Origin: Nannocystaceae bacterium
GTDB lineage: Bacteria > Myxococcota_A > Polyangia > Nannocystales > Nannocystaceae
Length of the DNA: 50,306 bases
Direction: 5' to 3'
Assembly: GCA_041389865.1 (NCBI GenBank)
Contig: JAWKRA010000004.1
Span: 1 to 50,306, forward strand
In this document: positions 23,648 to 50,306 of the stretch, piece after piece
Layout: the number at the start of each line of letters is the position of its first letter
Position numbering within the stretch: position 1 is the first letter of the stretch
Made by a program: the position numbers and the translations under genes
Notes under the pieces: generated by a model
Database searches by the model: none
Told to the model about the DNA's origin: nothing
What the model saw: the letters and a program-made list of their open reading frames with translations, nothing else

Positions 23648-25664
<2,017 letters not shown>

Positions 25665-25668
<4 letters not shown>

Positions 25669-27867: not shown

Positions 27868-29369
27868 GCTCCGAGCCGACCGGGGGGCGTCTTCCGACGT
27901 TCGCGGCTCGACTCGACGTCGCCGCCCGCGGCTTTCGCTTCGCACCCGAGATCCGCAGGCAAGGCCGCGTGCTCGCAGTCGGCGACGGGGTGGCCCTCGT
28001 CAGTGGGATGCCTGATGTCGCGTTGTCGGAGATCGTGCTGGTCGCCGGCTGGCTCCCAGGCGTAGTGCTGGATCTTCGCGAGTCGACGGTCGGCGTCGCC
28101 CTGCTCGAGTCGCCTACGACTTCACTGGTCGGCGCGCCGGTCACTGGGAGCGGTGAGGTGATCTCCTGCTTCGTCGGCGACGAGCTCCTCGGACGAATGG
28201 TCGACGGACTCGGACGCCCTCTGGACGGCGGCAAGCCCTGGTCGAGCGCCGAGCGCTGGCCCGTCGAGCGAGCGGCGCCAGCATTGGTGGAGCGCGCGGC
28301 TGTGCGAGAGCCGCTGCTCACCGGCGTTATGGTCGTCGACGCGTTATTCCCGATCGGGCGAGGGCAACGTGAGCTCATCGTGGGCGATCGCGGGACCGGA
28401 AAGTCAACCCTTGCGATTGACGCTGTGATCAATCAGCGCGACACGGGCGTACGGTGCGTGATCGTCTCGATCGGGCAGCAGTCGTCGTCGGTCGTCCAGC
28501 TGATCGAGCGGCTGGCGAAGCACGACGCGCTCGGGCACACGGTGGTCGTAGTAGCTCCGGCCGCGAGCGCGCCTGGTCTACGATTCATCGCACCGTACGC
28601 TGGATGCACGATCGGGGAGTTCTTCCGCGATCGCGGTGAGGACGCGCTCGTCGTTTTCGATGACCTGACTCAGCACGCGATCGCGTACCGCGAACTGTCG
28701 CTGCTCCTGCAGCGTCCGCCTGGACGAGAGGCGTACCCCGGAGACATCTTCTTCATCCACTCGCGCCTCCTCGAACGAGCTACGCGACTCAGCGACGCGC
28801 GCGGCGGAGGATCATTGACGATGTTGCCGATCGCGGAGACCCACGCAGGCCGCATCAGCGACTTTATCCCTACGAACTTGATCTCTATTACCGACGGTCA
28901 GCTCTACCTCGAGCCGACGCTCTTCGATCGCGGGATCAAACCGGCCGTTGATGTGGGCCTCAGCGTGTCGCGGGTGGGCGGGCGAACACAGCGCCCAAGT
29001 ATGAAAGCCGTCGCTGGTAGGCTGCGGCTCGACGCGGCGCGGTTTCGGGAGGTCGAGGTATTCAGTCGATTCGGGGGCCGCGTCGAAGCTTCGACACAGA
29101 AGCTCTTGACGCGCGGAGAACGCGCGCGAGAGCTGCTCAGACAAGGCCCGGGCGATGCGAGGTCACCGGCCGAACAGGTCGCATTGCTCGTCGCGCTCCA
29201 AGAGGGCAGGTTCGATGAAGTCGAGGTTCCGGACGTGCCTGCGGTCGTCGCTCGCTTGCGTGCTCGCCTGCGATCGTGTGATCCGGTTCTCCTGACAAAC
29301 CTCGATCATGGGCCTCCACCGACCGCGTCAGAGCGATCAGCGATTGTCGCGCTCTTCGAGGACACGTGA
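27864..29369 (+). CDS. atpA: F-type ATPase alpha subunit
   Basis: Walker A GDRGTGKST, downstream conserved regions, characteristic alpha C-terminal domain. Confidence 0.85.
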   Translation: MSSEPTGGRLPTFAARLDVAARGFRFAPEIRRQGRVLAVGDGVALVSGMPDVALSEIVLVAGWLPGVVLDLRESTVGVALLESPTTSLVGAPVTGSGEVISCFVGDELLGRMVDGLGRPLDGGKPWSSAERWPVERAAPALVERAAVREPLLTGVMVVDALFPIGRGQRELIVGDRGTGKSTLAIDAVINQRDTGVRCVIVSIGQQSSSVVQLIERLAKHDALGHTVVVVAPAASAPGLRFIAPYAGCTIGEFFRDRGEDALVVFDDLTQHAIAYRELSLLLQRPPGREAYPGDIFFIHSRLLERATRLSDARGGGSLTMLPIAETHAGRISDFIPTNLISITDGQLYLEPTLFDRGIKPAVDVGLSVSRVGGRTQRPSMKAVAGRLRLDAARFREVEVFSRFGGRVEASTQKLLTRGERARELLRQGPGDARSPAEQVALLVALQEGRFDEVEVPDVPAVVARLRARLRSCDPVLLTNLDHGPPPTASERSAIVALFEDT

Positions 29370-30292
29370 TGGAACAGGCCGCGCTGGAGCGAAAGCTGGG
29401 TAACGCCAAGGCGCTGCGTGACATCATGGTGACCATGCGCTCGCTCTCGGCAGCTCAGCTGCGCCGTGGCCAGGCCGCGCTCGAGGCGATTCGGCAGTAC
29501 GAAGAGACGATCTGCCGCGGTCTACTGCGATCGCGCTATGAGCCGCCTTCGCGCACGACACCGGATCGCGTACTGATCATCGTCCTCGGAAGCGATCAGG
29601 GTATGTGCGGCGGACTGACGCAACGCCTCGTAGATCGCGCCATACTCCGTATCGAGAGACACTCCGCCGTGACCCGTATCCTGGCTGTCGCCGGGCGACG
29701 TGCTCAAGCGTATCTCGAGGCGAGAGGACAGAGGGTCGACTATCGATACGAAAGCGCTGTCTCTGTCCGCGGTGTAGACGCGGTCGTCGAAGCGTTGGCC
29801 GAGCATATCGAGAAGGAGCTGCCAGGTGGTCCCTGCTGTCGCGTAGAGGTCGTATACACCCGTCAATCCGGCGAGTATGGAGGTTCGGCCAGCGCGCTGT
29901 GCATCTACCCCCCGCAGCCGAGAATCCCTGACGGCGCGGTGCTTCCTCGCTTCGATCCCCAGAGCTACGAGCTGCTCGCGGACGTGTTGGCCGCATCGCT
30001 GCCGGAGTGGAGCTACGCCGCACTGTATCGCTGCGCGCTCGAGTCGTTAGCCGCCGAGCACGAGGCGAGGATGCGGACGACGGACGCAGGCGTCCATACG
30101 CTCGATCGCCGCCTCGACGAGCTCCGCCTCAGCCTTAATCACTTGCGGCAGGAGTCCATCACCAATGAAATCCAGGAGTTGGTCGCAGGCGCCGGGAAAT
30201 CAATACTCAGCCGCCAGCGGGATCCTCGTACCGACGCTCAAATAATGAGGCTTCGGCATCCGCGCGAATCATCAGAACCCCGTGAGTCTTGA
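29366..30292 (+). CDS. atpG: F-type ATPase gamma subunit
   Basis: N-terminal coiled coil (LRDIMVTMRSLSAAQLRRGQAALEAIRQYEETI) and C-terminal helix (ESITNEIQELVAGA). Confidence 0.7.
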   Translation: MMEQAALERKLGNAKALRDIMVTMRSLSAAQLRRGQAALEAIRQYEETICRGLLRSRYEPPSRTTPDRVLIIVLGSDQGMCGGLTQRLVDRAILRIERHSAVTRILAVAGRRAQAYLEARGQRVDYRYESAVSVRGVDAVVEALAEHIEKELPGGPCCRVEVVYTRQSGEYGGSASALCIYPPQPRIPDGAVLPRFDPQSYELLADVLAASLPEWSYAALYRCALESLAAEHEARMRTTDAGVHTLDRRLDELRLSLNHLRQESITNEIQELVAGAGKSILSRQRDPRTDAQIMRLRHPRESSEPRES

Positions 30293-36160: not shown

Positions 36161-37496
36161 CTCGCCTCAATTCCTCGGTCGTCGCCGCGACCGCTTGGGT
36201 GCCCTTGGGGTTTACGTACCAGCCCGGATCGCCGTCGCCGGTGAGATCGTCGCGAACCTTCAGAATCGTGAACATCCCGCCCATGGTGATGGCGTCGTGG
36301 GGGCCGCGCGCGCCGACCATGGGGATCGAGTTGGCCGGGACCTTCATGCCCATGCTCCCCATCTCGCCCATGCCCTCGTGCCCCATGGTCATGTACCCGG
36401 GCGCGACCCGGCCGGCGCGACGATCGAGGTCACCAGGCTTGACGCCGATGAGGTTGGGCAAGTCGTGGCCCATCTGGTTCATGACGTGGTGGGTCATGTG
36501 GCAGTGCATCGCCCAGTCGCCCGGCGCGTCGGCGACGAACTCGACGTCGCGCGTGGACCCGACGGGCACTAACACGGTGGTCTCGGGCCACTGCGCGGGC
36601 GCGGGGATCGTGCCGCCGTCGGTGGCCACCACCTTGAAGTAGTAGCCGTGGAGGTGAATCGGGTGGTGATCCATGGCGCTCAGGTTGCCGAAGCGCAGGC
36701 GCACGCGCTCGCCGGTCTTCACCACCAGCGGCGCGGTGCCGGGGAACGCCCGCGCGTTGAAGGTGAGGACGTTGAAGTCCGACATCTCGTTGGGATCGGG
36801 GCGACGGGTCCCCGGCGCGATCTTCCACTCGCTGAGCATGAGCACGAAGTCGCGATCGACGGCGTAGCCGGCCGGCGGGCGACGGGGGTGGACGACGATC
36901 ATCCCCATCATGCCCATCGCCATCTGCGTCATCTCGTCGTGGTGCGAGTGGTACATGAAGGTGCCGGACTGGCGGAAGGTCCACTCGTAGCGGAACGTCT
37001 CGCCCGGGGCGATCGTGCGTTGATTGAGGCCGCCGACGCCGTCCATGCCGTTGGGCAAGAACACGCCGTGCCAGTGCACCGTGGTGGGCGCTGGCAGGCG
37101 ATTGGTCACGTACACGCGCACGCGGTCGCCCTCGACGGCCTCGATGGTCGGCCCGTGCACGCGGCCGTTGTAGCCCCAGCAGCGCGCCTCGAGCCCCGGC
37201 GCGAAGGTGTGCTCCACCTCCTCTGCGATCAGGTGGTAGACCTTGACGCCGTCGACGATCTTCCACTCGAGGGTCGCGCCGTCGGGAGTGATTGTGGGGC
37301 GGTAGTGGGTGCCGGGGAGACCGGGCGTCTGCGACGAGCCCTCGCCGCTGTAGCTGCGCTCCCACCGACGCGCGCCGCCGGGCGCGGCCTCGGCCGATCG
37401 CGCTGCGAGGAGGGTTGCGCCGCCAGCGAGCGCGGCGCCAGAGAGCAGCGCCGCACGACGGCCGAAGCGACTCGGGGAGTCGTTGCCATTCGTCAT
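36144..37496 (-). CDS. multicopper oxidase, Tat-exported (CueO/CopA-like)
   Basis: Twin-arginine leader SRFGRRAALLSGAALAGG. Copper sites HWHG, HSHHDE, HCHMTHHVMNQM. Met-rich segment MTMGHEGMGEMGSMGMK. Confidence 0.8.
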   Translation of the reverse strand: MTNGNDSPSRFGRRAALLSGAALAGGATLLAARSAEAAPGGARRWERSYSGEGSSQTPGLPGTHYRPTITPDGATLEWKIVDGVKVYHLIAEEVEHTFAPGLEARCWGYNGRVHGPTIEAVEGDRVRVYVTNRLPAPTTVHWHGVFLPNGMDGVGGLNQRTIAPGETFRYEWTFRQSGTFMYHSHHDEMTQMAMGMMGMIVVHPRRPPAGYAVDRDFVLMLSEWKIAPGTRRPDPNEMSDFNVLTFNARAFPGTAPLVVKTGERVRLRFGNLSAMDHHPIHLHGYYFKVVATDGGTIPAPAQWPETTVLVPVGSTRDVEFVADAPGDWAMHCHMTHHVMNQMGHDLPNLIGVKPGDLDRRAGRVAPGYMTMGHEGMGEMGSMGMKVPANSIPMVGARGPHDAITMGGMFTILKVRDDLTGDGDPGWYVNPKGTQAVAATTEELRRDGILL

Positions 37497-37742
37497 ACTC
37501 GTGGTTGATATCTACAGTCGGTTCGTCGCGCAATCGGATCGACGCTCGTCCCTCGAGTGCGCGTGCTCTCGCGGCTCCCGACGCGCGCTTCGATCCTTCC
37601 GCGTCCGCGGCGCGATCGAGGGAGTCGTCGAATTCGCGGCCCTGAGACCCCGTGGCGGTCGATCTCTACGACCCGCCGTTGCCCGAGATCGGGGGTGTAA
37701 TGCCCGGCGGGGTCGTCCGTCAGCCCGGGTGAGGAGCGACCC

Positions 37743-40145
37743 ATGCCCAGAGACACCCATCGTTGTTGCAGCCACGGCGCGCACCATCACACCGACGAAG
37801 CTGACCGTTGTCATCACGACTCGAGCCATCACCACCACGGCCACGTCGCGTTGGATCCGGTCTGCGGGATGACGGTCGAGGTCGACGCGGACACGCCGAC
37901 GCACGTCCACGAGGGGCGCACCCACTCCTTCTGCAGCGTCCGCTGCCGAGAGACGTTTCGCCGCGACCCCGCGCGCTACACCAGCGCCGCTCCGGCCACG
38001 CCCGCGCCGCCCGCTGATCCAGCGCAGGAGTACACCTGCCCGATGCACCCTGAGGTCGTGCAGCTCGGCCCGGGGAGCTGTCCCAAGTGCGGCATGGCCC
38101 TCGAGCCACGAGTCATCTCGTTGACGACGACGGAGGCGCCGGACCCCGAGCTCGTCGACCTGTCCCGGCGCCTGCTCGTCAGCCTCGCGCTCACCCTGCC
38201 GGTGTTTGCGATCGCCATGTCCGAGATGATCCCAGGGCTCGCGCTCGCCGAGCTGCTGCCCGCGCGGATCGTGACGTGGACGCAGCTGCTGTTGGCGACC
38301 CCGGTGGTGCTCTACGGCGGCTGGCCGTTCTTCCAGCGCGGCTGGGCTTCGCTGCGCTCGCGCCACCTCAACATGTTCACGCTCATCGCCCTGGGCACCG
38401 GCGCCGCCTATCTCTACAGCCTGGTCGCCGCGCTCGCGCCGGGGCTGTTCCCCGTGAGCATGCGCGGCCACCACGGCGAGGTCGGCGTGTACTTCGAGGC
38501 CGCGGCCGTGATCACCACGCTCGTGCTGGTCGGCCAGGTGCTCGAGCTCAAGGCCCGCGGTCGCACGTCGAGCGCGCTGCGAGCGTTGCTCGGTCTCGCG
38601 CCGCCGACCGCTCGCGTGCTCCGGAGCGGCGGCGTCGAGGAGGACGCCCCGCTCGCCGACGTCGTCCCCGGTGATCGGCTGCGCGTTCGGCCAGGTGAGA
38701 AGGTGCCCGTGGACGGGGTCATCGAGGAGGGCAGGAGCCACGTCGACGAGTCCATGATCACCGGCGAGCCGCTCCCCGTGGCCCGCGCTCCCGGGGATCG
38801 GGTCACGGGCGGCACCGTGAACGGGGCTGGCGGCTTTGTCATGCGCGCCGATCGAGTCGGGTCCGACACACTGCTCGCCCAGATCGTGCGCATGGTCGGC
38901 GAGGCGCAGCGCAGCCGCGCCCCGATCCAGCGCCTCGCCGATCAGGTCGCCGCTTGGTTTGTCCCGGTCGTGATCGCGATCGCGGCCCTCAGCTTCCTCG
39001 CTTGGCTGCTCCTGGGCCCTGCGCCAGCCGTAACCTACGCCCTGATCAGCGCGGTCGCAGTGCTGATCATCGCCTGCCCCTGCGCGCTCGGCCTGGCGAC
39101 GCCCATGTCGATCATGGTGGGGACCGGGCGCGGAGCCGCGGCCGGCGTGTTGATCAAGGACGCCGCGGCCCTCGAGACGCTCGAGAAGATCGACACCCTG
39201 GTGGTGGATAAGACCGGCACGTTGACCGAGGGCAAGCCGCGGCTCGTCTCGATCGTGCGCGCGCCGGGGTTGGACGAGGAGGAGCTTCTGAGCCTCGCCT
39301 CGAGCCTCGAGCAGGCCAGCGAGCACCCGCTGGGCGCGGCGATCGTCGCGGCCGCCGGCGCGCGGGGGTTGGCGCTGGCGGGCGTGGGCGAGTTCGCCTC
39401 GCGCACCGGGATGGGCGTCACCGGAGTCGTCGACGGACGCATGGTTGCGATCGGCAACCGCAGGCTCTTGCACGAGATCGGCGTCGACCCGCGCGCCCTC
39501 GAAGACGACGCCGATCGCCTGCGCGCGTCCGGGGAGACCGCGATGTACGTGTGCGTCGACGGGCGAGCAGCCGGAGTCTTCGGGGTCGCCGATCCGATCA
39601 AGGCCTCGACCCCCGAGGCGCTCGCCCGCCTGCGCGAGGACGGTGTGCGCGTCGTGATGCTCACCGGGGACAGCCGCGCCACCGCCCTGGCTGTGGCCCG
39701 CACCCTCCGCATCGACGAGGTCCACGCCGAGATCCTGCCCGAAGGGAAAGGTGCGTTGATCGCCCGTTTGCAAGCCGAGGGCCGCCGGGTCGCCATGGCC
39801 GGCGACGGCGTCAACGATGCCCCAGCGCTGGCCCGCGCCGACGTGGGAATCGCCATGGGCACCGGCACGGACGTGGCCATGGAGAGCGCCGGCGTGACGC
39901 TCGTCAAGGGCGACCTCCGGGGGATCGCGCGGGCCCGTCGCCTGTCTCGCGCCACCATGCGCAACATCCGACAGAACCTCTTCTTCGCCTTCGCCTACAA
40001 CGTCCTCGGCGTGCCGATCGCCGCCGGGGCCCTCTACCCGATCTTCGGCCTGCTGCTCTCGCCGATGATCGCCAGCGCGGCCATGAGCGCGAGCTCGGTG
40101 TCGGTGATCGCCAACGCGCTGCGCCTGCGTCGGCTGGCGCTGTAG
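37743..40145 (+). CDS. copA: copper-translocating P1B-type ATPase with His-rich + YHS/TRASH-like + HMBD N-terminal domains
   Basis: N-terminus [24 protein letters not shown]; DPVCGMTVE...[10 protein letters not shown]; [26 protein letters not shown] metal site [27 protein letters not shown]. Confidence 0.85.
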
Positions 40146-40277
40146 TCATCGGTCGTAGACTGATTGGTCCTCGCGCTCGCGCCTCCTCGGCGCGAGCGCG
40201 TCCGTTTTGTTGGCGCCCGAGTCGGCCGCCTCACGTAGAATGGCCGACACGAGCTCGCTGCAGCATTGAGGAGATCA

Positions 40278-40840
40278 TGAGCGCGTCCGCAACCTCCGAT
40301 GTCGCCCAGGTGCTGGTCGAGAACCATCGCCACTTCCTCCGCTTCCTCGAGCGGCGGGTCGCCACGCGCGAGGCCGCCGAGGACATCCTGCAGTCGGCGC
40401 TCGCCCGCGGGATCGAGCGCAGCGGGGAGCTGCGCGATGAGGAACGCAGCGTCGCGTGGTTCTACCGGCTCCTGCGCAACGCGCTCATCGACCACTATCG
40501 CCACCAGGACGCCGAGCGTCGGGCGCTCTCACGCCACCTGGCCGAAGAGGTGGCCCGTGGCGACGCGGACCTGGCGCTCGAGCAAGCCGTCTGTCAGTGC
40601 TTTAGGGCGCTGGTGGACACGCTGACTCCGGCGTACGCCGACGTCCTCCGCGCCGTCGACCTCGGCGAGGTCTCGATCGCCGACTATGCGGCGGGTGCGG
40701 CCATCACCGCCAACAACGCCCGAGTCCGCCTGCACCGCGCGCGCGCGGCCCTGCGCAAGAGCCTCGAGCGCATGTGCGGCACTTGTACGACGCACGGGTG
40801 CCTCGACTGCTCGTGCAAGTCCGCGTGTAGCTCGACGTGA
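40278..40840 (+). CDS. ECF sigma-70 factor with C-terminal cysteine-rich domain (CorE-like)
   Basis: Sigma-2 and sigma-4 regions, a linker CQC, and a tail CGTCTTHGCLDCSCKSAC. Sits between the Cu-ATPase and a multicopper oxidase. Confidence 0.75.
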
Positions 40841-41046
40841 GTTGGTGGCCCGACCTCGGCGGGTTCGCTACCGGCTCCGATAGTGTCGCCGACGAGCCCG
40901 CGGCCGGGCGAGCGTTGGCGCCGACGAGGGTCCCCTTGGCACCCCCTCCGGAGTATCGCCGTTTACCCCGGGGAGAGACCGGATCCTTCAACACCCCCCG
41001 CTTCGGCCCGCGCTCGGATACGCTATTCGATTGGGAGACACCCACC

Positions 41047-42459
41047 ATGAACGCCCGTCGGATCGCCTTTCTGATGAGCTCGATCGTCGTCGCCTGCGGA
41101 GACGTCGACGGAGCCGAGGCGCCGATCGAAGCTCCGATCGGCGCGCGGCCGCTCATCGACGTCGACCCCGCCGCGGATCGCATTGAGGTGAGCCTCGTCG
41201 CCGGGCCCGCGAAGTGGACCTACCTGCCGGGGAAGGCCGCCGCCGATGTGTGGGCCTATCGAGACGACAACGACCCCGCGGATTTGGGGCAAATCCCGGG
41301 CCCCGCGATCGTCGGCCGCGTCGGCGATCACGTCACCGTCCACTTCCGCAGCGAACTCCCCGAGCCGACCACGATCCACTGGCACGGCCTGCGGGTCGCC
41401 GCCAGCCACGACGGCAGCAACGTCTCTCAGTCGCCCGTCGAGCCGGGCGGCGCGTTCACCTACGAGTTCACGCTGACCGACGCAGGGACCTTTTGGTTCC
41501 ACCCGCACCTCGACGGGGATGTCCAGATCGAGCGTGGCCTCTACGCGCCCATCATCGTCCGCGGCGACGACGAGGTCGGGGCCGACGCGGATCGTCTGCT
41601 GGTCCTTGACGACGTGAAGCTCGAGTCCACCGGCGCGCTCTCGACGACGATCACCTCGCTTGATCTGATGGTCGGCCGCCAGGGGAACGTGCTCCTCGTC
41701 AACGGCGCTCGTCAGCCGCGCCTCGACGCTGCCGTCGGGGCACGCGAGCGTTGGCGCCTCCTCAACACGGCCAACGGGACATACTTCAACGTCGCCCTCC
41801 CAGGGCGCTCACTTCGCGTCATCGCCTGGGACGGCGGGCTGCTGCCCGAGCCCTATGAGGCGGACTCGCTGCTAATCGCGCCCGGCGAACGCTACGAGCT
41901 CCTCGTCGATCTCGACGGCGTCGAGGGAGATGAGATCGAGCTGCGGACGCTCCACTACGATCGTGGCCACGAGCTCCCGGATCTCGGCCCTCGCACGCTC
42001 GCCACCTTCGTCCTCGGCCCGCCGCCGACCCATCCTCGGCCGGACGCGCCCGCGCGCTGGGGGACCGTCGCGCCGCTCCCGGACACCGCGACGCGTCGGG
42101 AATTCGTCCTCCGCGAGGAGGAGCCAGCCGATCCGAGCGCCGAGCCCCGCTTCTATATCAACGACGAGGCTTTTCCGCTGACGACGCCCGTCATCAGCAA
42201 CCAGGGCGATCTCGAGATCTGGGAGCTCCGCAACGACGCCGAGATGGACCACCCCTTCCACCTCCACGGCACCTTCTTCCAGGTCCTGGACGCCCCCCAC
42301 CTCGGTTGGAAGGACACCGTCAACGTGCCGATGAAGTCGACCGTACGCTTCGCGGTGCGGCTCGATAACCCCGGAGAGTGGATGTTTCACTGCCACATCC
42401 TCGAGCACGCCGAGCGCGGCATGATGGGCGTGCTCCACGTGCTCGAGGCTTCACCATGA
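41047..42459 (+). CDS. multicopper oxidase lipoprotein (three cupredoxin domains)
   Basis: Lipobox VVACG. HWHG, HPHLDGD, HLHGTFFQV, HCHILEHAERGMMG. Confidence 0.75.
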   Translation: MNARRIAFLMSSIVVACGDVDGAEAPIEAPIGARPLIDVDPAADRIEVSLVAGPAKWTYLPGKAAADVWAYRDDNDPADLGQIPGPAIVGRVGDHVTVHFRSELPEPTTIHWHGLRVAASHDGSNVSQSPVEPGGAFTYEFTLTDAGTFWFHPHLDGDVQIERGLYAPIIVRGDDEVGADADRLLVLDDVKLESTGALSTTITSLDLMVGRQGNVLLVNGARQPRLDAAVGARERWRLLNTANGTYFNVALPGRSLRVIAWDGGLLPEPYEADSLLIAPGERYELLVDLDGVEGDEIELRTLHYDRGHELPDLGPRTLATFVLGPPPTHPRPDAPARWGTVAPLPDTATRREFVLREEEPADPSAEPRFYINDEAFPLTTPVISNQGDLEIWELRNDAEMDHPFHLHGTFFQVLDAPHLGWKDTVNVPMKSTVRFAVRLDNPGEWMFHCHILEHAERGMMGVLHVLEASP

Positions 42460-42908
42460 GGAACCCCATGCACAGACACGTCACGATCATGCTCCTGCTC
42501 GCGCTATCCACCACCAGCTGCGGAGACGACGGGACGGGCAGCGCGAGCGAGAATTCGACCGCCGTGATGACAACCGACGTTGCGACGTCAACCACCGACG
42601 GCGGCACCGAGACGGAGAGCACGAGCGACGCCGTCCTCCCGCCTGCAGCGCCCACGGACCTCAAGGCCAGCATCCTCGAGGGCGGCGTGCACCTCACGTG
42701 GAAGGACGTTGCCGAGGATGAGGACAACTACATCATCGAGAACAAGGTCGAGGGTGGCGAGTTCACGCTGGTCATCGAGCTCCCCTTCGACTCGGTGACG
42801 TACCACGACACCGGCGTGACGGCCGCGACCAGCTACACGTACCGCGTCAAGGCGGTCAACGCTGGCGGCGAGGCCGCGTCGAGCGAGGTGGTAGTCGCGG
42901 TGCCCTGA
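42456..42908 (+). CDS. lipoprotein with fibronectin type III domain
   Basis: Lipobox TTSCG, Thr/Ser-rich linker, FN3 pattern PAAPTDL...VHLTW...YIIE...YHDTGVTAATSYTYRVKAVNAGG. Confidence 0.5.
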   Translation: MRNPMHRHVTIMLLLALSTTSCGDDGTGSASENSTAVMTTDVATSTTDGGTETESTSDAVLPPAAPTDLKASILEGGVHLTWKDVAEDEDNYIIENKVEGGEFTLVIELPFDSVTYHDTGVTAATSYTYRVKAVNAGGEAASSEVVVAVP

Positions 42909-43034
42909 GCGACGCTGCGAGCCCACCAGCCGCCGGGCGCAAGCGAGCGCGCATCGAGGTCGACGTCACGCTCGTCCGGTCGCACGCGACGAAGGGGCCA
43001 GAACCAAGCGGCGTCTCCTGTAGACTCTCCTCCT

Positions 43035-44150
43035 GTGCTCGACACGAGGCTCGGCGCGAAAGCGGCAGCTGCCTGGCTCGCAGCCGTGCTCGTCTGCGGC
43101 TGTGCCGAATCGCCGCGCGAGCACACGCTGCGGATCTGGGGCGAGGCCTACGTCGAGGAGGAGATCCCAGCCGCCGACGTGATCGACGGCTGGTCGATCG
43201 TCTTCGACGAATTCCTGGTCGCCGTCGGCGAGATCCACGTCGTCGCGGACGGGGGCGTCGTCGATCTTCCGGGCTGGTACGCCTTCGATTTGACGGTCCC
43301 CTCCGGCGGCGCGGGCTTCGAGGTCGCCGCGTTTGAAGCGACAGGCGAGCTGCAGCGGGTGGACTACCGGCTCGGGCGGCCCGGCGAGATCATCGGCGGC
43401 AACGCGACGCCGGAGCAGGCCGCCCGCCTCGTCGCCGACAGGACCACGCTCTCCGTTCGAGGTCACGCGACCCGAAGCGACGAGGTGTACACATTCGCCT
43501 GGGACTTCGCCCTCGAGCTCGGCTCGCGCTGCGCGCTTGGCCAGGCGATCGCCACACCCGGCGATGATGGGCCGGTGATCACGATACACGCCGATCACCT
43601 GCTCCTTGACGATCTCGAGCTCGCCCCCGACATCGCCTTTGACGCGATCGCGGAGGCCGACGCCGACGGCGACTACACAGTCACCCGGGAGGAGCTCGCC
43701 AACGTCGACATCAGCGCGTTCCCGCGCTACCAGTCTGGCTCCTATGGAATCCCAGACCTCTGGAACTACATCGGCCACCTCGCGGGGACCCTGGGGCACA
43801 TCGACGGCGAGGGCGGGTGCGATCCCGAGTATGTCCCGGACGACTACCGCGCCCTCGAACCCCCGTCACACGGGGAGCACGCTCCCGCGCTCTTCGAGGC
43901 TCATTGCGCCGCATGTCATGGCTCGGACGGTCAAGGAGCAGGTCCTCTAGGACAGGTTTCGTGGCCGACGGCGTCGGACCTGACGCGGCTGCCACCGTCC
44001 GCCCTCGACCAGCGCTACCTCTACTTTCGCATCCTCGAGGGCGGCGCGTTCTTCCCCTACAATTCGGCGATGCCGGCGTTCGAGAGCCTGATTACCGAGG
44101 ACGAGGCCTGGGAGCTCGTCGCGCATGTGCATGCATTGAACGCCGGGTAG
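43035..44150 (+). CDS. lipoprotein with C-terminal mono-haem cytochrome c domain
   Basis: Lipobox LVCGCA. Haem-binding CAACH followed by a distal Met region (PYNSAMPAF). Confidence 0.55.
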   Translation: MLDTRLGAKAAAAWLAAVLVCGCAESPREHTLRIWGEAYVEEEIPAADVIDGWSIVFDEFLVAVGEIHVVADGGVVDLPGWYAFDLTVPSGGAGFEVAAFEATGELQRVDYRLGRPGEIIGGNATPEQAARLVADRTTLSVRGHATRSDEVYTFAWDFALELGSRCALGQAIATPGDDGPVITIHADHLLLDDLELAPDIAFDAIAEADADGDYTVTREELANVDISAFPRYQSGSYGIPDLWNYIGHLAGTLGHIDGEGGCDPEYVPDDYRALEPPSHGEHAPALFEAHCAACHGSDGQGAGPLGQVSWPTASDLTRLPPSALDQRYLYFRILEGGAFFPYNSAMPAFESLITEDEAWELVAHVHALNAG

Positions 44151-44264
44151 CGCGTAAGTCTCAAACTGCACCCGCGAGCCCGGTGCGGCGAGCACAGGTG
44201 CTTCGGCCGCGAAAGCGGACGTCCATTCACGATGGGCGTTCGTCCGTGACTCCTCGCGTCGCGC

Positions 44265-45080
44265 TCAATCGACCGCGAAGCTGTAGGACGCCCAAAAGCT
44301 CTCCCAGTCCGTGTGCGTGCACTCGTCGCATGGCCGCAGGTGAACGAGGCGCACGAGCCACACGCCGGGGTCGGTGAGCTCGATCCGCGCGACGCCGCGG
44401 CGATTCGTGCGTGCTCGTGCCGTACGCACGCCGCCGCCGGGTAGTCGCACATGCGCCGTCACGGGCGCCCGGGGGAGCGGTGCGCCCTCGAGGAGGACCT
44501 GAACCCGTAGCTTGTCGCCCCGCGCGGCGGCGTATGGATCGTCGAGGAGGACGATTTCGATCGGATGCCCGAGCACGACATCGTGGACCGGCGCGCGATT
44601 CGAGGCAGTGGTCGTCAAGGCCTTGATCGACCGCATGTAGCACTCCCGCTCCTGCGCTCGGTGACCCCTTCGCGCGCGCAGCTCGATGATCTCAGTGAGC
44701 CCCTCGTGCTCGAGGTAGTGGGTGAAGCGGTCGTCGGGGAGCTTGATGTCGACCCAGCGTCGCTCCATCGCCCACATGGCCTGGCCCGTCGCGCCGGTCG
44801 GGTAGCCGTCGAGCACGGGCGGGTCGCCAGCCGCACGCGCGCGCATTAGATCGACGATCCCGTCGGCGGTCACGAGCTCGAAGCGTCGAGTCCTCTCCGG
44901 TTGAAAACCCCGGCGCTCGGCGGCCACGAAGTCGTCGCCGACGCGTAGCTCGAGGGTGATCTTGGCGCGTGCGTCCGGGGTGTAGTCCGACGCCTCGAGC
45001 CAGTAATCGTGGGCCTTGATCGCACGAGGTGTCAACAAGAGCAGCGCCGCAGTGACCGCGAGTGATACCCGTCGAATCAT
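44265..45080 (-). CDS. DUF4198-family periplasmic protein
   Basis: Signal peptide then AHDYWLE N-terminal motif typical of DUF4198. Confidence 0.5.
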   Translation of the reverse strand: MIRRVSLAVTAALLLLTPRAIKAHDYWLEASDYTPDARAKITLELRVGDDFVAAERRGFQPERTRRFELVTADGIVDLMRARAAGDPPVLDGYPTGATGQAMWAMERRWVDIKLPDDRFTHYLEHEGLTEIIELRARRGHRAQERECYMRSIKALTTTASNRAPVHDVVLGHPIEIVLLDDPYAAARGDKLRVQVLLEGAPLPRAPVTAHVRLPGGGVRTARARTNRRGVARIELTDPGVWLVRLVHLRPCDECTHTDWESFWASYSFAVD

Positions 45081-45206
45081 GGGCGCGACTCTATAACTAC
45101 CCGCGATAAGACTTCAAGAGTCGTCGCTATACGACTGTACCCGAGCGCGGTTATTGGTGATAGCAACTCGCGGAGGGAGACGTCACGACGCGGGGCCAAC
45201 CTCGAC

Positions 45207-45569
45207 CTACGTAGCCAAGAACACGTGGACGCCACCGGTCCGGCGATCCTGTAGGGCCCAGAGCCGCCCCTCATCGATCCAGAGTTCGGCGATCCGCTCG
45301 ACGTCGACGAAGGGCAGGACCCAGTCGGGGAGCTCGAGCTCCTCCGCGAGCTCGCGTTCGACGTACGCACTCACGGAGCTGTGGACCCCGCACCAGACCT
45401 CGAGCGCCGCGAAGATCGCCGCGGCGTCATCACCGAAGTGGCGTCTCAACGCGTTGCGTGCCCTCGTCTGCGGTCGACCCGATGTCATCTCGCGCCCCCC
45501 GAGCAACTGGGCGCCCGCACGTCCGTATGCGGGCACCCCCGATCGACGCGCACGTCCGTGTGCGCCCAC
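45207..45569 (-). CDS. hypothetical protein (the start may be the internal Met at 45488)
   Basis: A conserved-looking C-terminal region (ELELPDWVLPFVDVERIAELWIDEGRLWALQD) with high GC3. No family assigned. Confidence 0.35.
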   Translation of the reverse strand: MGAHGRARRSGVPAYGRAGAQLLGGREMTSGRPQTRARNALRRHFGDDAAAIFAALEVWCGVHSSVSAYVERELAEELELPDWVLPFVDVERIAELWIDEGRLWALQDRRTGGVHVFLAT

Positions 45570-45587
45570 GAGCCACTGCGCCAGCTC

Positions 45588-46283
45588 CTACTCATCCGCG
45601 CCCCGTAGTGCTTCCGCCAGCCCGATCAGCTCGTGCGGTCCGAGCTCGGGCGCCGGCAGCCGTCGGTACAGCAACGACGCCTGCGGGATCGGGGGATCCT
45701 CGTCGTGTGCCCGCCGCGGAGTGTCATGTCCGGGAGGACAGTCGAAAACACCGAGCTCCAACCACGCCGGCCCGACCTCGCTGCAGGAGCAGGGGTTGCT
45801 CCGCGCGTAGTGAGCACAGCGCGGGGCCAGGAAGCCCTCGACGTTTCTGCGCGCGCGGGCAAGGCGAACTCGGTACGCGCCCTCCTCGATCTCGAGCATC
45901 GCGGCCGCCTGCGCCGGGTCGAAGCCCAGCACGTCGGTCAAGACGAACGCGACGCGGAGCGAGCCGCTCAGGCAGCCGAGGACGCGAGCGAAGCAGGTCC
46001 GTTTGGCCTCCCAGGCGAGCGACTCGATCGCCGCGATCGCTACCGTGATCTTCGGGCGTTGGCGGAGATCGTCGTCGAGGATCGAGAAGGTCGTGGTTCT
46101 GCGCTGCTCCTTCGCCACCGTTCGCGCCATCGCGGCGATGAGCGTCGAGAAGCGGGCGCCGCTGCGGGCTCGCGCTGCGGACCGGACGACGGCGCTCACG
46201 AGCTCGAGCGCCTCGGCCCTCGATCCTGTAAAGAGGAAGGCGCACCGGTGCAGGTCGCGGACGACGACGCGAAGGTCAGCCAT
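45588..46283 (-). CDS. ECF-like sigma factor with ~75-aa Cys-containing C-terminal extension
   Basis: Weak sigma-2 (LHRCAFLFTGSRAEALELVSAVV), clear sigma-4 (RVAFVLTDVLGFDPAQAAAMLEIEEGAYRVRLARARRNV), tail CAHYARSNPCSCSE...FDCPPGHD. Confidence 0.5.
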   Translation of the reverse strand: MADLRVVVRDLHRCAFLFTGSRAEALELVSAVVRSAARARSGARFSTLIAAMARTVAKEQRRTTTFSILDDDLRQRPKITVAIAAIESLAWEAKRTCFARVLGCLSGSLRVAFVLTDVLGFDPAQAAAMLEIEEGAYRVRLARARRNVEGFLAPRCAHYARSNPCSCSEVGPAWLELGVFDCPPGHDTPRRAHDEDPPIPQASLLYRRLPAPELGPHELIGLAEALRGADE

Positions 46284-46758
46284 GATCGCCTCCGAGCGCA
46301 GGCGATGAGCGCTGCACGAACGCGAGCGCTCCCTCGGGCACGAAATCGACGGGGAGCGCACCGGCGGGGACTTCGGCGACGGCCTGGGCTTGATACCCGC
46401 GCTCGGTCTCGAAGATCAGCAGGGTCCGACTCGCGTTGCGGAAGAACAGCGCGAAGCGGAAGCAGAACCAGCCGTCGCCGGTCTCGGCGTCGAGCAGGTC
46501 GGCCGCTTCGGCGAGGATGTTGCGACGGGGATCGTCGTCGTCCTCGAGCTCGCCGTGGGTGGCGCCATCCCAGGGGATGAGGCACGGGCGACCCTGGACG
46601 TCCTGGACCGCGTAGCAGGCTCCGCGCGCAGTCGTGTAGGTGACGACCGCGCCGTGCCGTCGAAACCCGGGCTCGGCAGGCGGACGTTCGTTGGCCGCCT
46701 CGCCGCTGCGCAGCCACACGAGGTGCGGGCTGCCAGGACCGACGACCGTGGCGGTCAC
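46276..46758 (-). CDS. hypothetical protein (acidic, no TM) at the head of a three-gene minus-strand cassette
   Basis: High-GC3 ORF overlapping the downstream sigma gene by 8 nt. No recognisable motif. Confidence 0.4.
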   Translation of the reverse strand: MTATVVGPGSPHLVWLRSGEAANERPPAEPGFRRHGAVVTYTTARGACYAVQDVQGRPCLIPWDGATHGELEDDDDPRRNILAEAADLLDAETGDGWFCFRFALFFRNASRTLLIFETERGYQAQAVAEVPAGALPVDFVPEGALAFVQRSSPALGGDHG

Positions 46759-47015
46759 GGGCGGGTTCCTCCGGTACGCGAGGGCGCTGTAATGCCGACG
46801 ATCCAGACGGCGGCGCCGAGAACACGCGCTTGGCCTCGTCGAGTGGCGACGCGCTGGCGCGACGCGTCAGCGTAGGTGTTGCAGCCGCGTCGGTGGCGCA
46901 GCCACTCGGCGACGCCCCTTCGAGTCCGATAGTTGTCGGCGTTCGTCACCTCCGGGTGACCGCTCTCGGTAGCGAACACACGGAGCGACGCGTCGTGACG
47001 GTGTGTGGTGACCAT

Positions 47016-47114
47016 ACACAGAGCCTAGCGCAGGTTTCGTATATCATGTATACGTTTAATCATAAATTATCCGAATTGTGGGCGCGTTCGCGCGTCACGG
47101 GGCGCGTTCGCGCG
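47016..47114. promoter_or_regulatory. AT-rich divergent promoter/operator region with a 15-bp direct repeat
   Basis: A ~30% GC stretch (ATATCATGTATACGTTTAATCATAAATTAT) in a 70% GC background. An imperfect palindrome TGTGTGGTGACCATACACA sits at about 47004-47022. GGGCGCGTTCGCGCG occurs twice (47080-47094 and 47100-47114), 20 bp apart. Confidence 0.5.
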
Positions 47115-47360
47115 GGTGATATCCTGCCGCGGGTGACGAGCGATCAGTGTCGCGCCGCACGGTCCTTTCTCCGATGGACGCTCGATGACCTCGCCGAGCG
47201 GGCTGGCGTCTCGCGAACCGCTATCTACTCCTTCGAGGCCAACCGGCGGACGCCGCACAAGGCGACTGTGCAGGCGATACGCCACGCGTTCGAGCAAGCA
47301 GGGGTCGAGTTTTTGGACAACGGCGATGGTCCTGGACTTCGGGTAAAGCGGCGGGGCTGA
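47046..47360 (+). CDS. XRE-family helix-turn-helix transcriptional regulator (the start may be GTG at 47133)
   Basis: HTH LDDLAERAGVSRTAIYSFEANRRTPHKATVQAIRHAF. It diverges from the minus-strand cassette across the AT-rich region. Confidence 0.5.
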   Translation: MYTFNHKLSELWARSRVTGRVRAGDILPRVTSDQCRAARSFLRWTLDDLAERAGVSRTAIYSFEANRRTPHKATVQAIRHAFEQAGVEFLDNGDGPGLRVKRRG

Positions 47361-47399
47361 GGCGCAGATGCTCGGGGGTGCCCCGTCCGGGGTCGGCAA

Positions 47400-49300
47400 T
47401 GCACCGGCCTGACCGCACCTCCGAGCCGTGTCTCGATGACGCACGTTCGCCGACGCGCCAACGGTTCGGCGAGCACTCGGGTCGGCATCGGCGACGCGCA
47501 CCCGACCCGCATCTCCGGCAGTCACCTCGGCGATGCCCACCCCCGTCGGTATGGCGATGCACACGACCGCATCGCCGAGCCCTGCCTCGCCGACTCACGT
47601 TGTCGATCCTCGAGGGCGCGCGCCGAAGGCCCGCATCGACTCAGCGATATATCGCCCGGCGATCGAGGCCGCGCCGAGCTGCTCGGCCGCCGAGCTGTAC
47701 CCTATCAACGCACGTTCGCCGGGCGCTTATGGACACCCGAGTCGTTCGGCGCTCCCGATCGCCTGTTCGGCGATGCCCGGCGACCGCATCGCCGAAACGT
47801 ACGTCGCTGGCGCACGTACGCGGACGCGTCAACGGCTCGGCGAAGCACCGCGTCGGCCCGGTGAAGCACGCCTCCGAGCACATCTCAGCTCCGCACCTCG
47901 GCGATGCCCATGGTCTCGAAGCGCCTCGGCGGTTCGGCGTTGATGCGCCTGCTCGGCGAAGCACACGCCCGACCGCATCGCCGAGCCGCGCCTCGACGAC
48001 GCACGCCGACGCGCCGGTGGTTCCACGAGAACTCGGCTCGGCGAACCACACTACCGAGCGCGTCGCCGAGCCGTACGCCGACGACCCACGTCCGCCGAGG
48101 CGACCTGGCTTGGCGAGAGCTCGGCTCCGAGCTGCCCCCGAGCACGGAACAGCTCGGCGGGACGCAGCATGACACTTCGCCGACTTCAACGGCGCACGTA
48201 CGCCGACGCGCCGGTAGTTCGGCGAGAACTCGGCTCGGTGAAGCACACTCCCGAGCGAATCGCCGAGCCGTACGCCGATGACGCACGTACGCCGAGGTGA
48301 TAGCGGCCCGCTCGGAGATGAGCCCCGACTACAGCGCGGCGAAGCCCAGTCGTCACGAGTCCGACCGCGTTCATGATCGTCCACACGAGCTCGGCGCGAC
48401 GTCACCGAGAGCGAGCACGACGCGGCACCGATCTTCGGCGCGCTCGAGATCGTTACCCAGGGGATCACCGACCGATGGAGCGCGAGCGACCCGGCAGCCC
48501 AGATCTACAACTCGGAAACTCGGCTCCCAAGCTCGGTCGCCCGGTGCTCAAGTTCGGCTCGGTGCCGTAAAACCCGGCTCGGCAACTTGGAAACCGGCTC
48601 CCAAGCTCAGATGCCGAGATACCGCAGCGCCGATCCTCGAGACGGTGGCGCGATGCCGGGCGATGCTCAACGAGCTTGTTCGGCGCGGAGTCGCGTGGTG
48701 GTCATGGTCTCCCGAGCGGCAAGCGCGTAACTCAGGTCGGTCGGAGCTCGGAAGCTCGGAAGCATGGCTCCTTGAACACTCGGCTCGGCAGTTCAACTCG
48801 GCGGCTCGGCTCAACTCGGCGGCTCGGCAGCTCAACTCGGCGGCTCGGCCCTATAGCCCGGCTCGACAACTCGGAAGCTCGGCTCGAGATCTCGCTTTCC
48901 GAGCACAAGCGCGCGACTCGGCGGACGGCACCTCGGAGACCGCTGTGATCTCGGTCGGCGCGGAGCCAAGGCTCGCCAAACGCGGTCGCCCGGTGCTCAA
49001 GTAGAGCTCGGCGCAGAAAACCCGGCTTGGTACCTGGGAGACCTGGCTCCAAGCTCGGATGCCGAGACACCCGCAGCGCTGGGTTCGGCGCGGAGTCGCG
49101 TGGGGGTCTTGGTCTTCCGACGCTCAAGTCGGTCGGAGCTCGGTAGCTCGGACGTTCGCCATTAACGCTCGGCTCGGCAGTTCAACTCGGAAACTCGGCC
49201 CAAAAACTCGGATCGGTGATTCGGCAACTCGGCAACTCGGCTCGGCGACTCGGAAACTCGGCTCGACGACTCGGAAACTCGGCTCGAGGCACCGTCGAGG
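47400..49300. repeat. gene-free region of nested degenerate direct repeats and heptamer microsatellites
   Basis: A ~110-bp unit occurs at about 47997-48105 and again at about 48187-48297, about 85% identical. A ~220-bp unit occurs at 48534-48795 and again at 48981-49185; the second copy carries a deletion. AACTCGG-type heptad arrays lie at 48786-48850 and 49165-49290. Recurring 17-mers include CACCTCGGCGATGCCCA and GACCGCATCGCCGAGCC. ORFs on both strands are Arg/Ser/Pro-rich junk. Confidence 0.65.
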
Positions 49301-49849
49301 AGTTGATTCGCGGCTTCTACCGCGTTGCTAATCAACGTTTTACAGAGGTCACCTGCGTCCTCGAGCGTGAGGACTCGGTCACCGGCACGATCACCAGTGC
49401 CGCCGGGTCCGCCTGGTCGAACAGTTCGGGCGTTGAAGCGCTGGGCGATCTCGGTGAGTCGACCCGGTTGGTACGAACTCGCGCGGTCGCTCGGCGACCC
49501 GAGCGCCGAGCGGACTCGTTGGACGTGTGCCGGTTCGGGGGTCGGGTGACGGTGTTGCCGAGCCGAGTTCCATGGTGACCGGAAGTTGGCAAGCCGAGTT
49601 CTCCGGGCTCTTGGGCTCGGCGCCGACCGAGATCTCAGTGACCTCCGCGATGCCGCCCGCCGATTCTCGCGCGTGTGCTCGGGCGAGGAGTCGGCGCGTG
49701 GTATCGATCGACTGCGGGACCGTCTGGCGACCTCCCTGATCGCCGACGTGCACGCGATTCCGAGATTGAGGCTACGGAGCTTCGGTAAACGAGCGTCAAG
49801 ACACCCCGCATCGCGCTTCTTATCGATGTCGCGCAATGTGTGGGGATGT

Positions 49850-50306
49850 GTCCATCAATATCCCGTTTGAATACATGAGGAGATCTCTTATGGGAGATCT
49901 CTTCATGGGTGGAATCGCTCAATTATTGATGCTCGAAATCGCGCGACACGCAAAATTTAAGGTGTCCGACGGCCGGTTGTCCGAAAGGTCAAGTGGCGAT
50001 TTTGATCGAGCGCAAATTTGCGCAAAAGGCCCAACATAAAATCGGGGTTCTACGGGATCCGAGATGAGCAGATTTGCGCTTCGTTTGCCGCATTCAAATG
50101 CCGGAAAAATGCGCAAATTCGTGAGTCACCAGCACACCGTCGACTGCAAGCGGCGTGATAATTCGAAAGGCCAGCAGCCCGTCGAGACCCGTTTGCATAA
50201 TTCAAAATCGGTAAAATCGCGCAATCTACAAGTCTGTCAATAGAGCGCTCGACGTGGTCGATCGGTCATGTCATTTTGCGGCATTCAAATGCCGCAAACG
50301 TAACAC
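49850..50306. other. lower-GC (~45%) terminal segment dense in palindromes and hairpins
   Basis: GGAGATCTCTT x2 (49879-49889 and 49893-49903). A perfect palindrome GCGCAAATTTGCGC (50010-50023). Hairpin GCGGCATTCAAATGCCGC (50278-50295) with a near copy at about 50088-50104. Several TTTGCGCAAA-like motifs. Confidence 0.5.

Follow-up and report, generated by a model that had tools for sequence, protein, structure and literature searches.

A 2.5-kb stretch of nested, degenerate CTCGG-rich repeats in a Nannocystaceae genome, tentatively read as satellite-like DNA

The locus and its coding potential

Near the end of the window, namely the whole stretch of 50,306 nucleotides that we analysed, a Nannocystaceae genome carries about 2.5 kb of nested, degenerate and non-coding repeats of a CTCGG-rich unit (47361-49850; hereafter, the block). 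The block is flanked on one side by a gene for an XRE-family HTH protein, which lies at the edge of a cluster of copper-resistance genes, and on the other by palindrome-rich DNA of low GC. The XRE gene (47046-47360, + strand, starting at 47046 or 47136) stops where the block starts, and an ECF-type sigma gene also lies upstream of the block. A previous reading, made from the letters alone (the sequence-only reading), had placed the repeats after such a regulator cassette, and both genes are indeed there, the XRE gene being taken only as context of the block. The upstream region of the XRE gene itself has AT-rich palindromes and no CTCGG. On the other side of the block, DNA of about 50% GC (49850-50306) contains 27-nt inverted repeats at 50082-50108 and 50274-50300, and the window ends at 50306. 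More broadly, rearranged DNA borders the region, namely a truncated kinase at 10103, a chimeric island and the low-GC segment.

The sequence-only reading had seen no credible ORF in the block, and this was borne out by three kinds of evidence. First, GC3 periodicity is absent in all frames from 47361 to the window end. Second, all 18 block ORFs have codon scores from -0.12 to -0.77 bits per codon, whereas 12 real genes that were held out range from +0.06 to +0.56. Third, Pfam gave zero matches for nine block ORFs and none for the six-frame translation of the block at E<=0.1, and the translations of the six longest block ORFs, joined as a single query, retrieved nothing at E<=1e-3 from 5.8e9 proteins; the conserved protein for which the sequence-only reading had left room was thus sought in both collections and not found. 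In tblastn, the genes downstream of the XRE homologue in another locus (L100) matched only at E>=0.5, and a tblastx comparison of the window with L100 and L101 gave too much noise in this GC-rich DNA to be used. A repetitive protein-coding gene or pseudogene was rejected, with no frame-consistent repeats, no codon bias and no protein homologues; moreover, since the indels between the two largest units of the block, A and B, are not consistently multiples of three, a reading frame is not kept.

Repeat units, arrays and the CTCGG lattice

The alignments confirmed that the repeats are degenerate and nested, as the sequence-only reading had held, and resolved them into the following layers. First, the type-I region (47390-48306) holds at least five diverged copies of an ~85-nt unit, with starts at 47390, 47761, 47950, 48035 and 48232, within a higher-order period of 371 bp (47390 to 47761). 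Most of these copies include the palindrome CTCGGCGA-N(9-32)-TCGCCGAG, a hairpin pattern found five times in the 0.5 kb of 47767-48266 versus four times in the other 47 kb. The youngest type-I duplication (47999-48300, + strand) consists of two 105-nt copies, 47999-48103 and 48196-48300, which are 88% identical and correspond to the duplication of ~110 bp noticed before. Second, unit A (48486-48935, + strand) and unit B (48936-49330, + strand) of a ~400-450-bp repeat are 79% identical, with indels of 1, 3, 5, 11, 13, 16 and 44 nt. Matches of 80-93% at a ~447-bp period (48527 to 48976, 48569 to 49017, 48678 to 49083 and 48731 to 49123) uphold the period claimed by the sequence-only reading, but not its ~220-bp unit, which is really larger.

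Third, A and B carry young tandem arrays at matching positions, both on the + strand. That of A (48781-48894) has periods of 18, 21 and 39, the consensus CGGCTCGGCAGCTCAACTCGG, 88% matches and a score of 106-119; that of B (49168-49286) has 3.1 copies of the 21-bp unit TCGGCGACTCGGAAACTCGGC at 93%, with CTCGG on an 8/13/21-bp lattice. Since these matching positions hold different 21-mers, each array would have been locally homogenised after the A/B duplication. Fourth, a decayed CTCGG array in A (48569-48623, + strand) has its partner in B at 49017-49071, where CTCGG is mutated to CTTGG or CCTGG and the motif is not conserved. Fifth, the left arm of an inverted repeat (48899-48985, + strand) matches, at 80% over 89 nt, a right arm (49594-49682, - strand) that is a partial inverted copy of a unit start. 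At long range, 47393-48888 aligns with 47767-49288 at 61% over 1.6 kb; this self-alignment and the inverted repeat go beyond what had been described before. Identity by layer is 88-93% in the 21-bp arrays, 88% in the 105-nt pair, 79% between A and B, ~63-71% among type-I units and 61% over the whole block. As to the recurring 17-mers previously listed, CACCTCGGCGATGCCCA (47523 and 47894) and GACCGCATCGCCGAGCC (47565 and 47971) do occur twice each, whereas GACGCACGTACGCCGA is of 16 nt and exact only once (48280), its other copies having one or two mismatches.

The inverted repeat, of ~87 nt, brackets 48899-49682, the hairpin units are similar to REP-type palindromes, and the region borders the rearranged DNA mentioned above. 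The block could therefore be wreckage, either of a decayed repetitive-protein gene or of nested non-autonomous mobile elements of a MITE- or REP-like kind. We consider this quite unlikely, as no protein remnant was found in any frame, no target-site duplication surrounds the inverted repeat, nothing similar to the units or arrays is present in the remaining 47 kb of the window, and the window showed neither a RAYT nor a transposase gene. A MITE in particular was rejected, the inverted repeat being present without target-site duplication and without another copy in the window. The mobile-element graveyard offered by the sequence-only reading thus found no homology support, the six-frame Pfam search being empty, though low-GC palindrome-rich DNA abuts the block.

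The motif itself, CTCGG or CCGAG, is present in 84 copies in 2.49 kb versus ~16 expected from the rest of the window, that is, a 5-fold enrichment of the pentamer, and the heptamer AACTCGG is enriched ~70-fold, with 15 of the 17 forward copies of the window inside the block, in keeping with the heptamer arrays of the sequence-only reading. Spacings of CTCGG peak at 8, 13, 21, 42 and 63 bp, and the 8-13-8 lattice has three matches versus none in 100 shuffles. The arrays run head to tail in one orientation and are then followed by inverted copies, with the CCGAG orientation prevailing over 49499-49760. Between units A and B the CTCGG columns are 89% conserved versus 73% for other columns (p ~0.001), a difference that the aligner may inflate by anchoring on the motif.

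These features bring to mind a cis-acting protein-binding array, in which a small RHH- or HTH-type protein would cooperatively coat the more than 80 CTCGG boxes of the 8/13/21-bp lattice, and which would serve as a putative centromere-like, iteron-like or titration site of the metal-resistance island or of the low-GC element. We regard this as the chief rival of the satellite-like reading proposed below, yet as rather doubtful. Enrichment, spacing, head-to-tail and then inverted orientation, motif columns more conserved than spacers, and the adjoining AT-richer, palindrome-rich segment all speak for it. Other RHH-type arrays are the omega heptads of pSM19035 and the MetJ metboxes. A precedent is parH of TP228 (also OF), bound by ParG, which has 20 degenerate ACTC boxes with regular 4-bp spacers, direct and inverted, and a ParG dimer on each (PMC3130281). 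Like parH, the block has numerous degenerate short boxes every 8 bp in direct and inverted orientation, and its box contains ACTC; however, parH is of ~100 bp (PMC3130281), with AT-rich spacers and beside parFG, whereas the block, which at 2.5 kb is ~10-20x larger, mixes spacings of 5, 8 and 13, has spacers rich in GC and comes with no par gene among those scanned.

Further observations count against a binding array. The window genes scanned include none for ParA, ParB, an RHH protein or Rep, DnaA boxes are not enriched, and the fossil arrays decay freely. The XRE protein is an unlikely binder, given the AT-rich, CTCGG-free palindromes upstream of its own gene, and homologous XRE loci are without the block. 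To our knowledge, the block also exceeds other plasmid centromeres or iteron sets. In sum, the boxes of the regulator binding-site array suggested by the sequence-only reading are there, but no partner gene is visible in the window.

Agreement among assemblies and tests for RNA

Three other assemblies, from different samples, reproduce the parts that they cover without any indel. Coverage is without gaps and extends over 47361-50076 in L001, which ends at 50076, and over 47361-48696 in L103 and L107. The four assemblies, including that of the window, agree base for base in the block except for two SNPs, are all at least 99.87% identical over the aligned stretches, two of which end at 48696, and do not differ in copy number. 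The block is real, stable and not an assembly artefact, which was how the sequence-only reading might have been overturned. The one observation in favour of mis-joined or collapsed repeats is that L103 and L107 both stop at exactly 48696, within the longest exact stretch common to units A and B; with the agreement of four assemblies from different samples against it, such an origin is extremely improbable. The same shared stop gives a hint, and only a hint, of the recombination hotspot proposed before, which it does not demonstrate. Two further contigs, L104 and L106, part from the window at 46091, continue as low-GC pseudopilin-like DNA and were taken for metagenome chimeras. Of five SNP sites among the strains, two (47713 and 47771) are located in the block, which is ~2.5x the density outside; these are small numbers, but they fit relaxed constraint.

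Beyond these strains, the block is absent downstream of the XRE gene in the two closest homologous loci (68-69% amino acid identity), and a nucleotide extension past the XRE stop in a homologous locus was only apparent, not real homology. Homologues of the 160-aa neighbour are found only in the same species or on very short contigs; the gene is also on record on a Nannocystaceae contig of 120,879 nt. Searches of phages and plasmids by blastn, PLSDB plasmids among them, gave no match, JGI metagenome contigs yielded nothing either for the palindrome at the end of the window or for the DUF4198 protein, and pattern scans of a viral contig collection gave nothing relevant.

A structured ncRNA locus had also been offered by the sequence-only reading. 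In this case the block would yield one or several ncRNAs, for instance tandem small RNAs or an XRE transcript with a far-reaching 3' end, and the hairpins of the type-I region or of 49430-49620 would be functional structures or protein sponges. The block does lie directly downstream of the XRE gene, on the same strand and with no terminator between them, and type-I windows reach fold z-scores of -2 to -3.5. In addition, a long imperfect hairpin, G.U-rich and strand-specific, spans 49430-49620 (+ strand), with -101 kcal/mol and z -3.1 on the + strand versus z -0.2 on the - strand. One compensatory T-A/C-G change occurs at a stem position, and two changes, namely one strain SNP and one repeat-copy difference, give G.U on the + strand.

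However, the Rfam scan that had been proposed gave zero block matches at gathering thresholds (Rfam 15), and at E<=5 it returned noise only (mir-486, sR34 and gyrA, at 16-20 bits). The promoter and terminator scan found nothing promoter-like or terminator-like within the block, its single terminator-like match being in the low-GC flank. By eye, an ECF-type promoter (AAC-N17-CGTC) matched in one or two type-I copies without being conserved, and no sigma-54 match was seen. Mean fold z in sliding windows is ~-0.6 on both strands, shuffled sequences are more structured than the arrays, the type-I palindromes fold as well on one strand as on the other, single units only have z -0.2 to -2.1, and the sole strong hairpin, that of 49430-49620, is not significant after the ~88 windows tested. 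An origin as ncRNA is therefore disfavoured, and we judge it as improbable as wreckage.

Comparison with known repeat systems and interpretation

Several known systems share one or another trait with the block. CRISPR arrays are likewise gene-free direct repeats, but no near-identical 23-50-nt repeat at regular spacing exists here: a CRISPR-like search gave only 28-32-nt words in three copies that are irregularly spaced (39 and 350 nt), the would-be 'spacers' are repeats too, and Pfam scans of the main ORFs of the window found no cas genes. The sequence-only reading was thus right that this is not a CRISPR array. An integron cassette array or CALIN was rejected, with zero RYYYAAC...GTTRRRY core pairs 50-150 nt apart on either strand. 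As in REP/BIME elements, imperfect GC-rich palindromes of ~30-40 nt cluster outside genes, namely the five type-I copies of the hairpin pattern; those of the block, however, are embedded in longer tandem units, lack a conserved GTAG head and a RAYT gene, and are not dispersed, since the other 47 kb have only the four bare-pattern matches and zero matches to the units. As to partition centromeres (parS, parC, parH and sopC), the block has repeated boxes, and the genes for a parA-type ATPase and a centromere-binding protein that would adjoin them were not found among the genes scanned upstream.

Plasmid iterons, such as those of RK2 oriV, F, P1 and R6K, resemble the block in its two sets of three to four 21-bp direct repeats, which fall within the 17-22 bp and helical phase of iterons (48781-48894 and 49168-49286), beside an AT-richer segment. 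Unlike them, the block has neither a rep gene nor a DnaA-box cluster and resembles no PLSDB plasmid: the window genes that were scanned gave no Rep-family match, DnaA boxes number 10 in the whole window versus 6.7 expected without clustering, and of the attributes of an iteron origin other than the repeats only the AT-richer flank is present.

Bacterial intergenic minisatellites or VNTR share with the block head-to-tail degenerate copies outside genes, short periods (8 and 21 bp) in longer ones and local homogenisation, although its size of 2.5 kb and its layering, with at least four levels of period and one inverted copy, go far beyond the usual, and no variation in copy number was seen among the four assemblies. 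We tentatively read the block, with a little less than even confidence, as lineage-specific, non-coding, satellite-like DNA that slippage and unequal recombination generated next to low-GC DNA rich in palindromes. A CTCGG-rich seed may have been amplified repeatedly: slipped-strand mispairing would have produced the 5-, 8-, 13- and 21-bp arrays, unequal recombination first the ~85-105-nt units and then a period of 371 bp and units of ~400-450 bp, one copy being inverted, and point mutations and small indels would have eroded the copies. Repeats within repeats of differing ages are expected from such birth and decay, and the decay of older arrays without motif conservation was likewise counted in favour, as were the lack of coding, promoter and Rfam signals in the block, its absence from the two closest XRE loci and the empty searches of the phage, plasmid, viral and metagenome collections. 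The same holds for comparable 21-bp CTCGG minisatellites, which other Myxococcota carry at unrelated intergenic sites (L059, L065, L048, L031 and L051). We infer that a dedicated sequence-specific function is absent, and the block would matter biologically mainly by providing a substrate on which recombination and slippage can act.

Four observations sit uneasily with satellite-like DNA. First, the 8/13/21-bp lattice (two helical turns) and the domains of one and then the opposite polarity look like designed binding arrays. Second, copies that are 60-80% identical imply an old structure, which survived bacterial deletion bias. Third, the same copy number in four assemblies is unusual for a freely slipping minisatellite. 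Fourth, the higher A/B conservation of CTCGG columns may be weak evidence against it. Overall, the sequence-only reading stands as to a non-coding, degenerate, nested and non-CRISPR block, while none of the four functions it had offered was demonstrated.

Bacterial genomes seldom keep 2.5 kb without a gene. The block therefore illustrates the satellite-like birth and decay of repeats in a large myxobacterial genome with a clarity that is rare, unless it is a binding array that has gone unrecognised. It is an orphan, with neither homologue nor partner gene found in the data searched and no sign of conservation. In practice, assemblies break here, and recombination may reshape the edge of the copper-resistance island. 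If it were true that a protein coats the CTCGG lattice, the block would count as a new centromere-like or titration site of very large size, and would gain sharply in value. A repetitive element was reportedly described in Myxococcus xanthus in 1991; our literature search on myxobacterial repeat elements found nothing usable.

A scan of a genome collection with the CTCGG 8-13-8 pattern retrieved 93 stretches, none related to the block beyond the pattern itself and none from the source genome. It is tempting to speculate, unlikely as we hold it to be, that the block is an unusually large cis-acting lattice coated by a putative small protein, as a centromere-like, silencing or titration site of a mobile metal-resistance island, and that the related 21-bp CTCGG arrays of other Myxococcota are smaller sites of the same system.

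Repeat layers and coding status

The block of nested repeats begins at the stop of the XRE gene and occupies window positions 47361-49850, and its repeats are real, being far above chance expectation. CTCGG/CCGAG occurs 84 times in these 2.49 kb, against about 16 copies expected from the remaining window, and 15 of the window's 17 forward copies of AACTCGG fall inside the block. A CTCGG lattice with 8-13-8 spacing matched three times in the block versus none in 100 shuffles, while same-strand distances between CTCGG copies peak at 8, 13, 21, 42 and 63 bp. The duplications listed in the sequence-only reading were all recovered at or near the places it had assigned them, except that GACGCACGTACGCCGA is exact in one place only.

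This block is non-coding, in agreement with the earlier claim that it holds no credible ORF. First, the window has a GC content of ~69% and its genuine genes carry a strong third-position GC signal, which is absent in every frame from the XRE stop (47360) to the window end. Second, a codon log-odds score, trained on 13 confident window genes, was below zero for 18 of 18 block ORFs (-0.12 to -0.77 bits/codon) and above zero for all 12 held-out genes used as a test (+0.06 to +0.56 bits/codon). Third, Pfam returned only chance-level, non-significant matches for block ORFs (E 0.05-0.16). Neither a six-frame Pfam search of 47361-50306 (zero matches at E<=0.1) nor a comparison of the six longest translated block ORFs with 5.8 billion proteins (zero matches at E<=1e-3) revealed the conserved protein that the reading had allowed for.

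In the type-I region (47390-48306), a ~85-nt unit is present in five or more copies within a 371-bp higher-order period. The copies at 47999-48103 and 48196-48300, which are 88% identical, form the youngest pair, the remaining ones being ~63-71% identical. Most copies contain a palindrome, CTCGGCGA...TCGCCGAG, whose loop measures 9 to 32 nt, a pattern matched five times in 0.5 kb of this region versus four in the other 47 kb. Farther downstream, units A (48486-48935) and B (48936-49330) are 79% identical, and the indels between them (1 to 44 nt) preserve no reading frame. Both contain a young 21-bp tandem array (internal identity 88-93%), whose 21-mer differs between units, and an older array whose CTCGG motifs have eroded to CTTGG, CCTGG or CTCAG; copy ages are layered, the A and B arrays were homogenised independently, and the older arrays have decayed freely. 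An inverted copy at 49594-49682 is 80% identical to 48899-48985 in the opposite orientation, and the CCGAG orientation predominates over 49499-49760. Since 47393-48888 aligns with 47767-49288 at 61% in a whole-block self-alignment, all layers probably descend from a single CTCGG-rich ancestor.

Assembly support and strain variation

An assembly artefact is essentially excluded. The contig JAGQIN010000070.1 (L001; MAG GCA_020431275.1) matches window 37123-50076 with 2 mismatches and 0 gaps, and two ENA contigs from other samples (L103 and L107) match from 45.6/45.7 kb as far as 48696, again ungapped, at 2-4 mismatches. Annotation places the organism among the Myxococcales / Nannocystaceae. Over the parts they cover, these assemblies do not display the artefact that the sequence-only reading had considered, and, to 50076 in the former and 48696 in the latter two, such near-identical sequences have no indel in the block. 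Of the five SNP sites at which the four assemblies differ, the block contains two, both C/T (47713 and 47771). L103 and L107, from different samples, both terminate exactly at 48696, within the longest exact stretch shared by A and B (21 nt, 48678-48698 = 49083-49103). This may reflect A/B recombinants in those populations, which would fit the recombination hotspot previously proposed, or an A/B copy-number polymorphism; alternatively, it may be mere assembly-graph ambiguity. Two further ENA contigs (L104, 790-1265; L106, 790-829) match the window as far as 46091, where they pass into low-GC DNA encoding a pseudopilin-like protein, and are probably chimeric metagenome joins.

Origin of the block and competing explanations

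The block is a real, complex intergenic tandem repeat, unusual for a bacterium, and an orphan. Phage and plasmid records held no similar DNA, and nothing was found in scans of JGI metagenome contigs and viral contigs. Usable relatives of the XRE protein number only two (68-69% identity); at both loci the block is absent downstream, and homology ends at the XRE stop codon. A CTCGG-lattice scan of a genome collection gave 93 stretches, alike in pattern only. Several of these come from MAGs of other Myxococcota and are minisatellites located between genes, with a 21-bp unit that holds two CTCGG. The array with most copies (~13; L059, 560-860) agrees with the window's 21-mer at 18/21 positions, about what ascertainment would yield by chance; comparable arrays occur in L065 (5440-5700), L048, L031 and L051. 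At the two loci whose neighboring genes were checked, L059 and L065, these genes are unrelated to one another and to those of the window. Several Gemmatimonadales contigs (L010, L019, L054, L081 and L091) contain short runs of the octamer GGCTCGGC as well, two of them (L010 and L054) near contig ends.

We tentatively favor an origin as satellite-like DNA, which repeated slippage and unequal recombination would have made and later erosion of copies would have blurred, and we infer that the block lacks sequence-specific function. The main rival, a protein-binding lattice, is less probable. Boxes 8 bp apart, in direct as well as inverted orientation, are like the ParG-coated ACTC boxes of TP228 parH/OF (PMC3130281), and CTCGG columns show greater conservation than spacers do (89% vs 73%). 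However, parH spans ~100 bp, one order of magnitude less than the 2.49-kb block, the lattice is absent from the loci of the XRE relatives, and no partner gene was seen among the window genes scanned, which included no partition, replication, transposase, integrase or cas gene; DnaA boxes were not enriched. A giant CTCGG binding lattice would raise the importance of the block if true, but we consider it improbable. A decayed gene, or small mobile elements reduced to wreckage, would be a more doubtful source still, weaker than the satellite or lattice readings.

A structured ncRNA, another option of the sequence-only reading, is likewise weaker than those two and has little probability. Rfam gave no match at gathering thresholds over the block, only noise at E<=5; a scan for sigma-70-like promoters found none, and the only hit resembling a terminator falls beyond the block, in its low-GC flank. 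Folded singly, type-I units did not outperform shuffles on either strand (z -0.2 to -2.1), and sliding windows have a mean z of ~-0.6 on + and - strands, with direct-repeat arrays less structured than shuffles. A long imperfect G.U-rich hairpin at 49430-49620 (+ strand, -101 kcal/mol, z -3.1; - strand, z -0.2) cannot be called significant, because ~88 windows were tested and it has no homologue for covariation.

Neighboring genes and low-GC DNA

Upstream of the block lie genes for a Cu-ATPase, multicopper oxidases, cytochrome c, a DUF4198 protein and an ECF-type sigma, followed by a 160-aa orphan and the XRE gene, so that the block does come after an XRE/ECF cassette, as had been noted. The sigma gene (45588-46283, - strand) has a weak region-2 match and a C-terminal Cys-rich tail, CAHYARSNPCSC, by which we take it to resemble copper-sensing CorE-type sigma factors, a likeness that would fit the copper genes around it. 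The 160-aa orphan (protein cluster P0009) is also found on a 120,879-nt Nannocystaceae MAG contig (MEZ4426209.1, R3A51_00805), to which the window may belong. The XRE upstream region (47016-47135) contains a perfect palindrome, CGTATA-TCATG-TATACG, and two direct copies of GGGCGCGTTCGCGCG, probable operators, both without CTCGG. Farther left, the window has a Cus-type efflux system as well as an ATP-synthase operon (23672-30292; alpha/beta, a and gamma subunits), possibly of N-ATPase type, whose GC of 62-66%, lower than its surroundings, suggests horizontal acquisition.

Downstream of the block, the flank at 49850-50306 is palindrome-rich with a GC of ~50%, and looks MITE-like, transposon-end-like or paired-operator-like. 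In it the 24-nt near-palindrome TTTGCSGCATTCAAATGCCGSAAA occurs three times, along with the palindrome GCGCAAATTTGCGC, two copies of GGAGATCTCTT and a ~219-bp segment (50082-50300) bounded by 27-nt inverted repeats (50082-50108 and 50274-50300); its single-stranded DNA fold has a z of -4.1. It had no match in viral or JGI collections, and L001 ends within it at 50076, the window end being 50306.

At 9588-10220, a Ser/Thr kinase gene is cut after HRDFKPD(N) at ~10103 and gives way to low-GC DNA, which includes the inverted repeat AATTTTGC...GCAAAATT and three tandem copies of TGGATCGATCC. In an XRE-homologue locus of another Myxococcales MAG (L101, 1532-2255), a homologous kinase (73% nt identity) is cut at the identical codon, there by an IS21-like element (IstB) whose end lies at that point. 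There, only 800 bp separate the kinase from the XRE homologue, whereas in the window kinase and XRE lie 37 kb apart, with metal-resistance genes in between.
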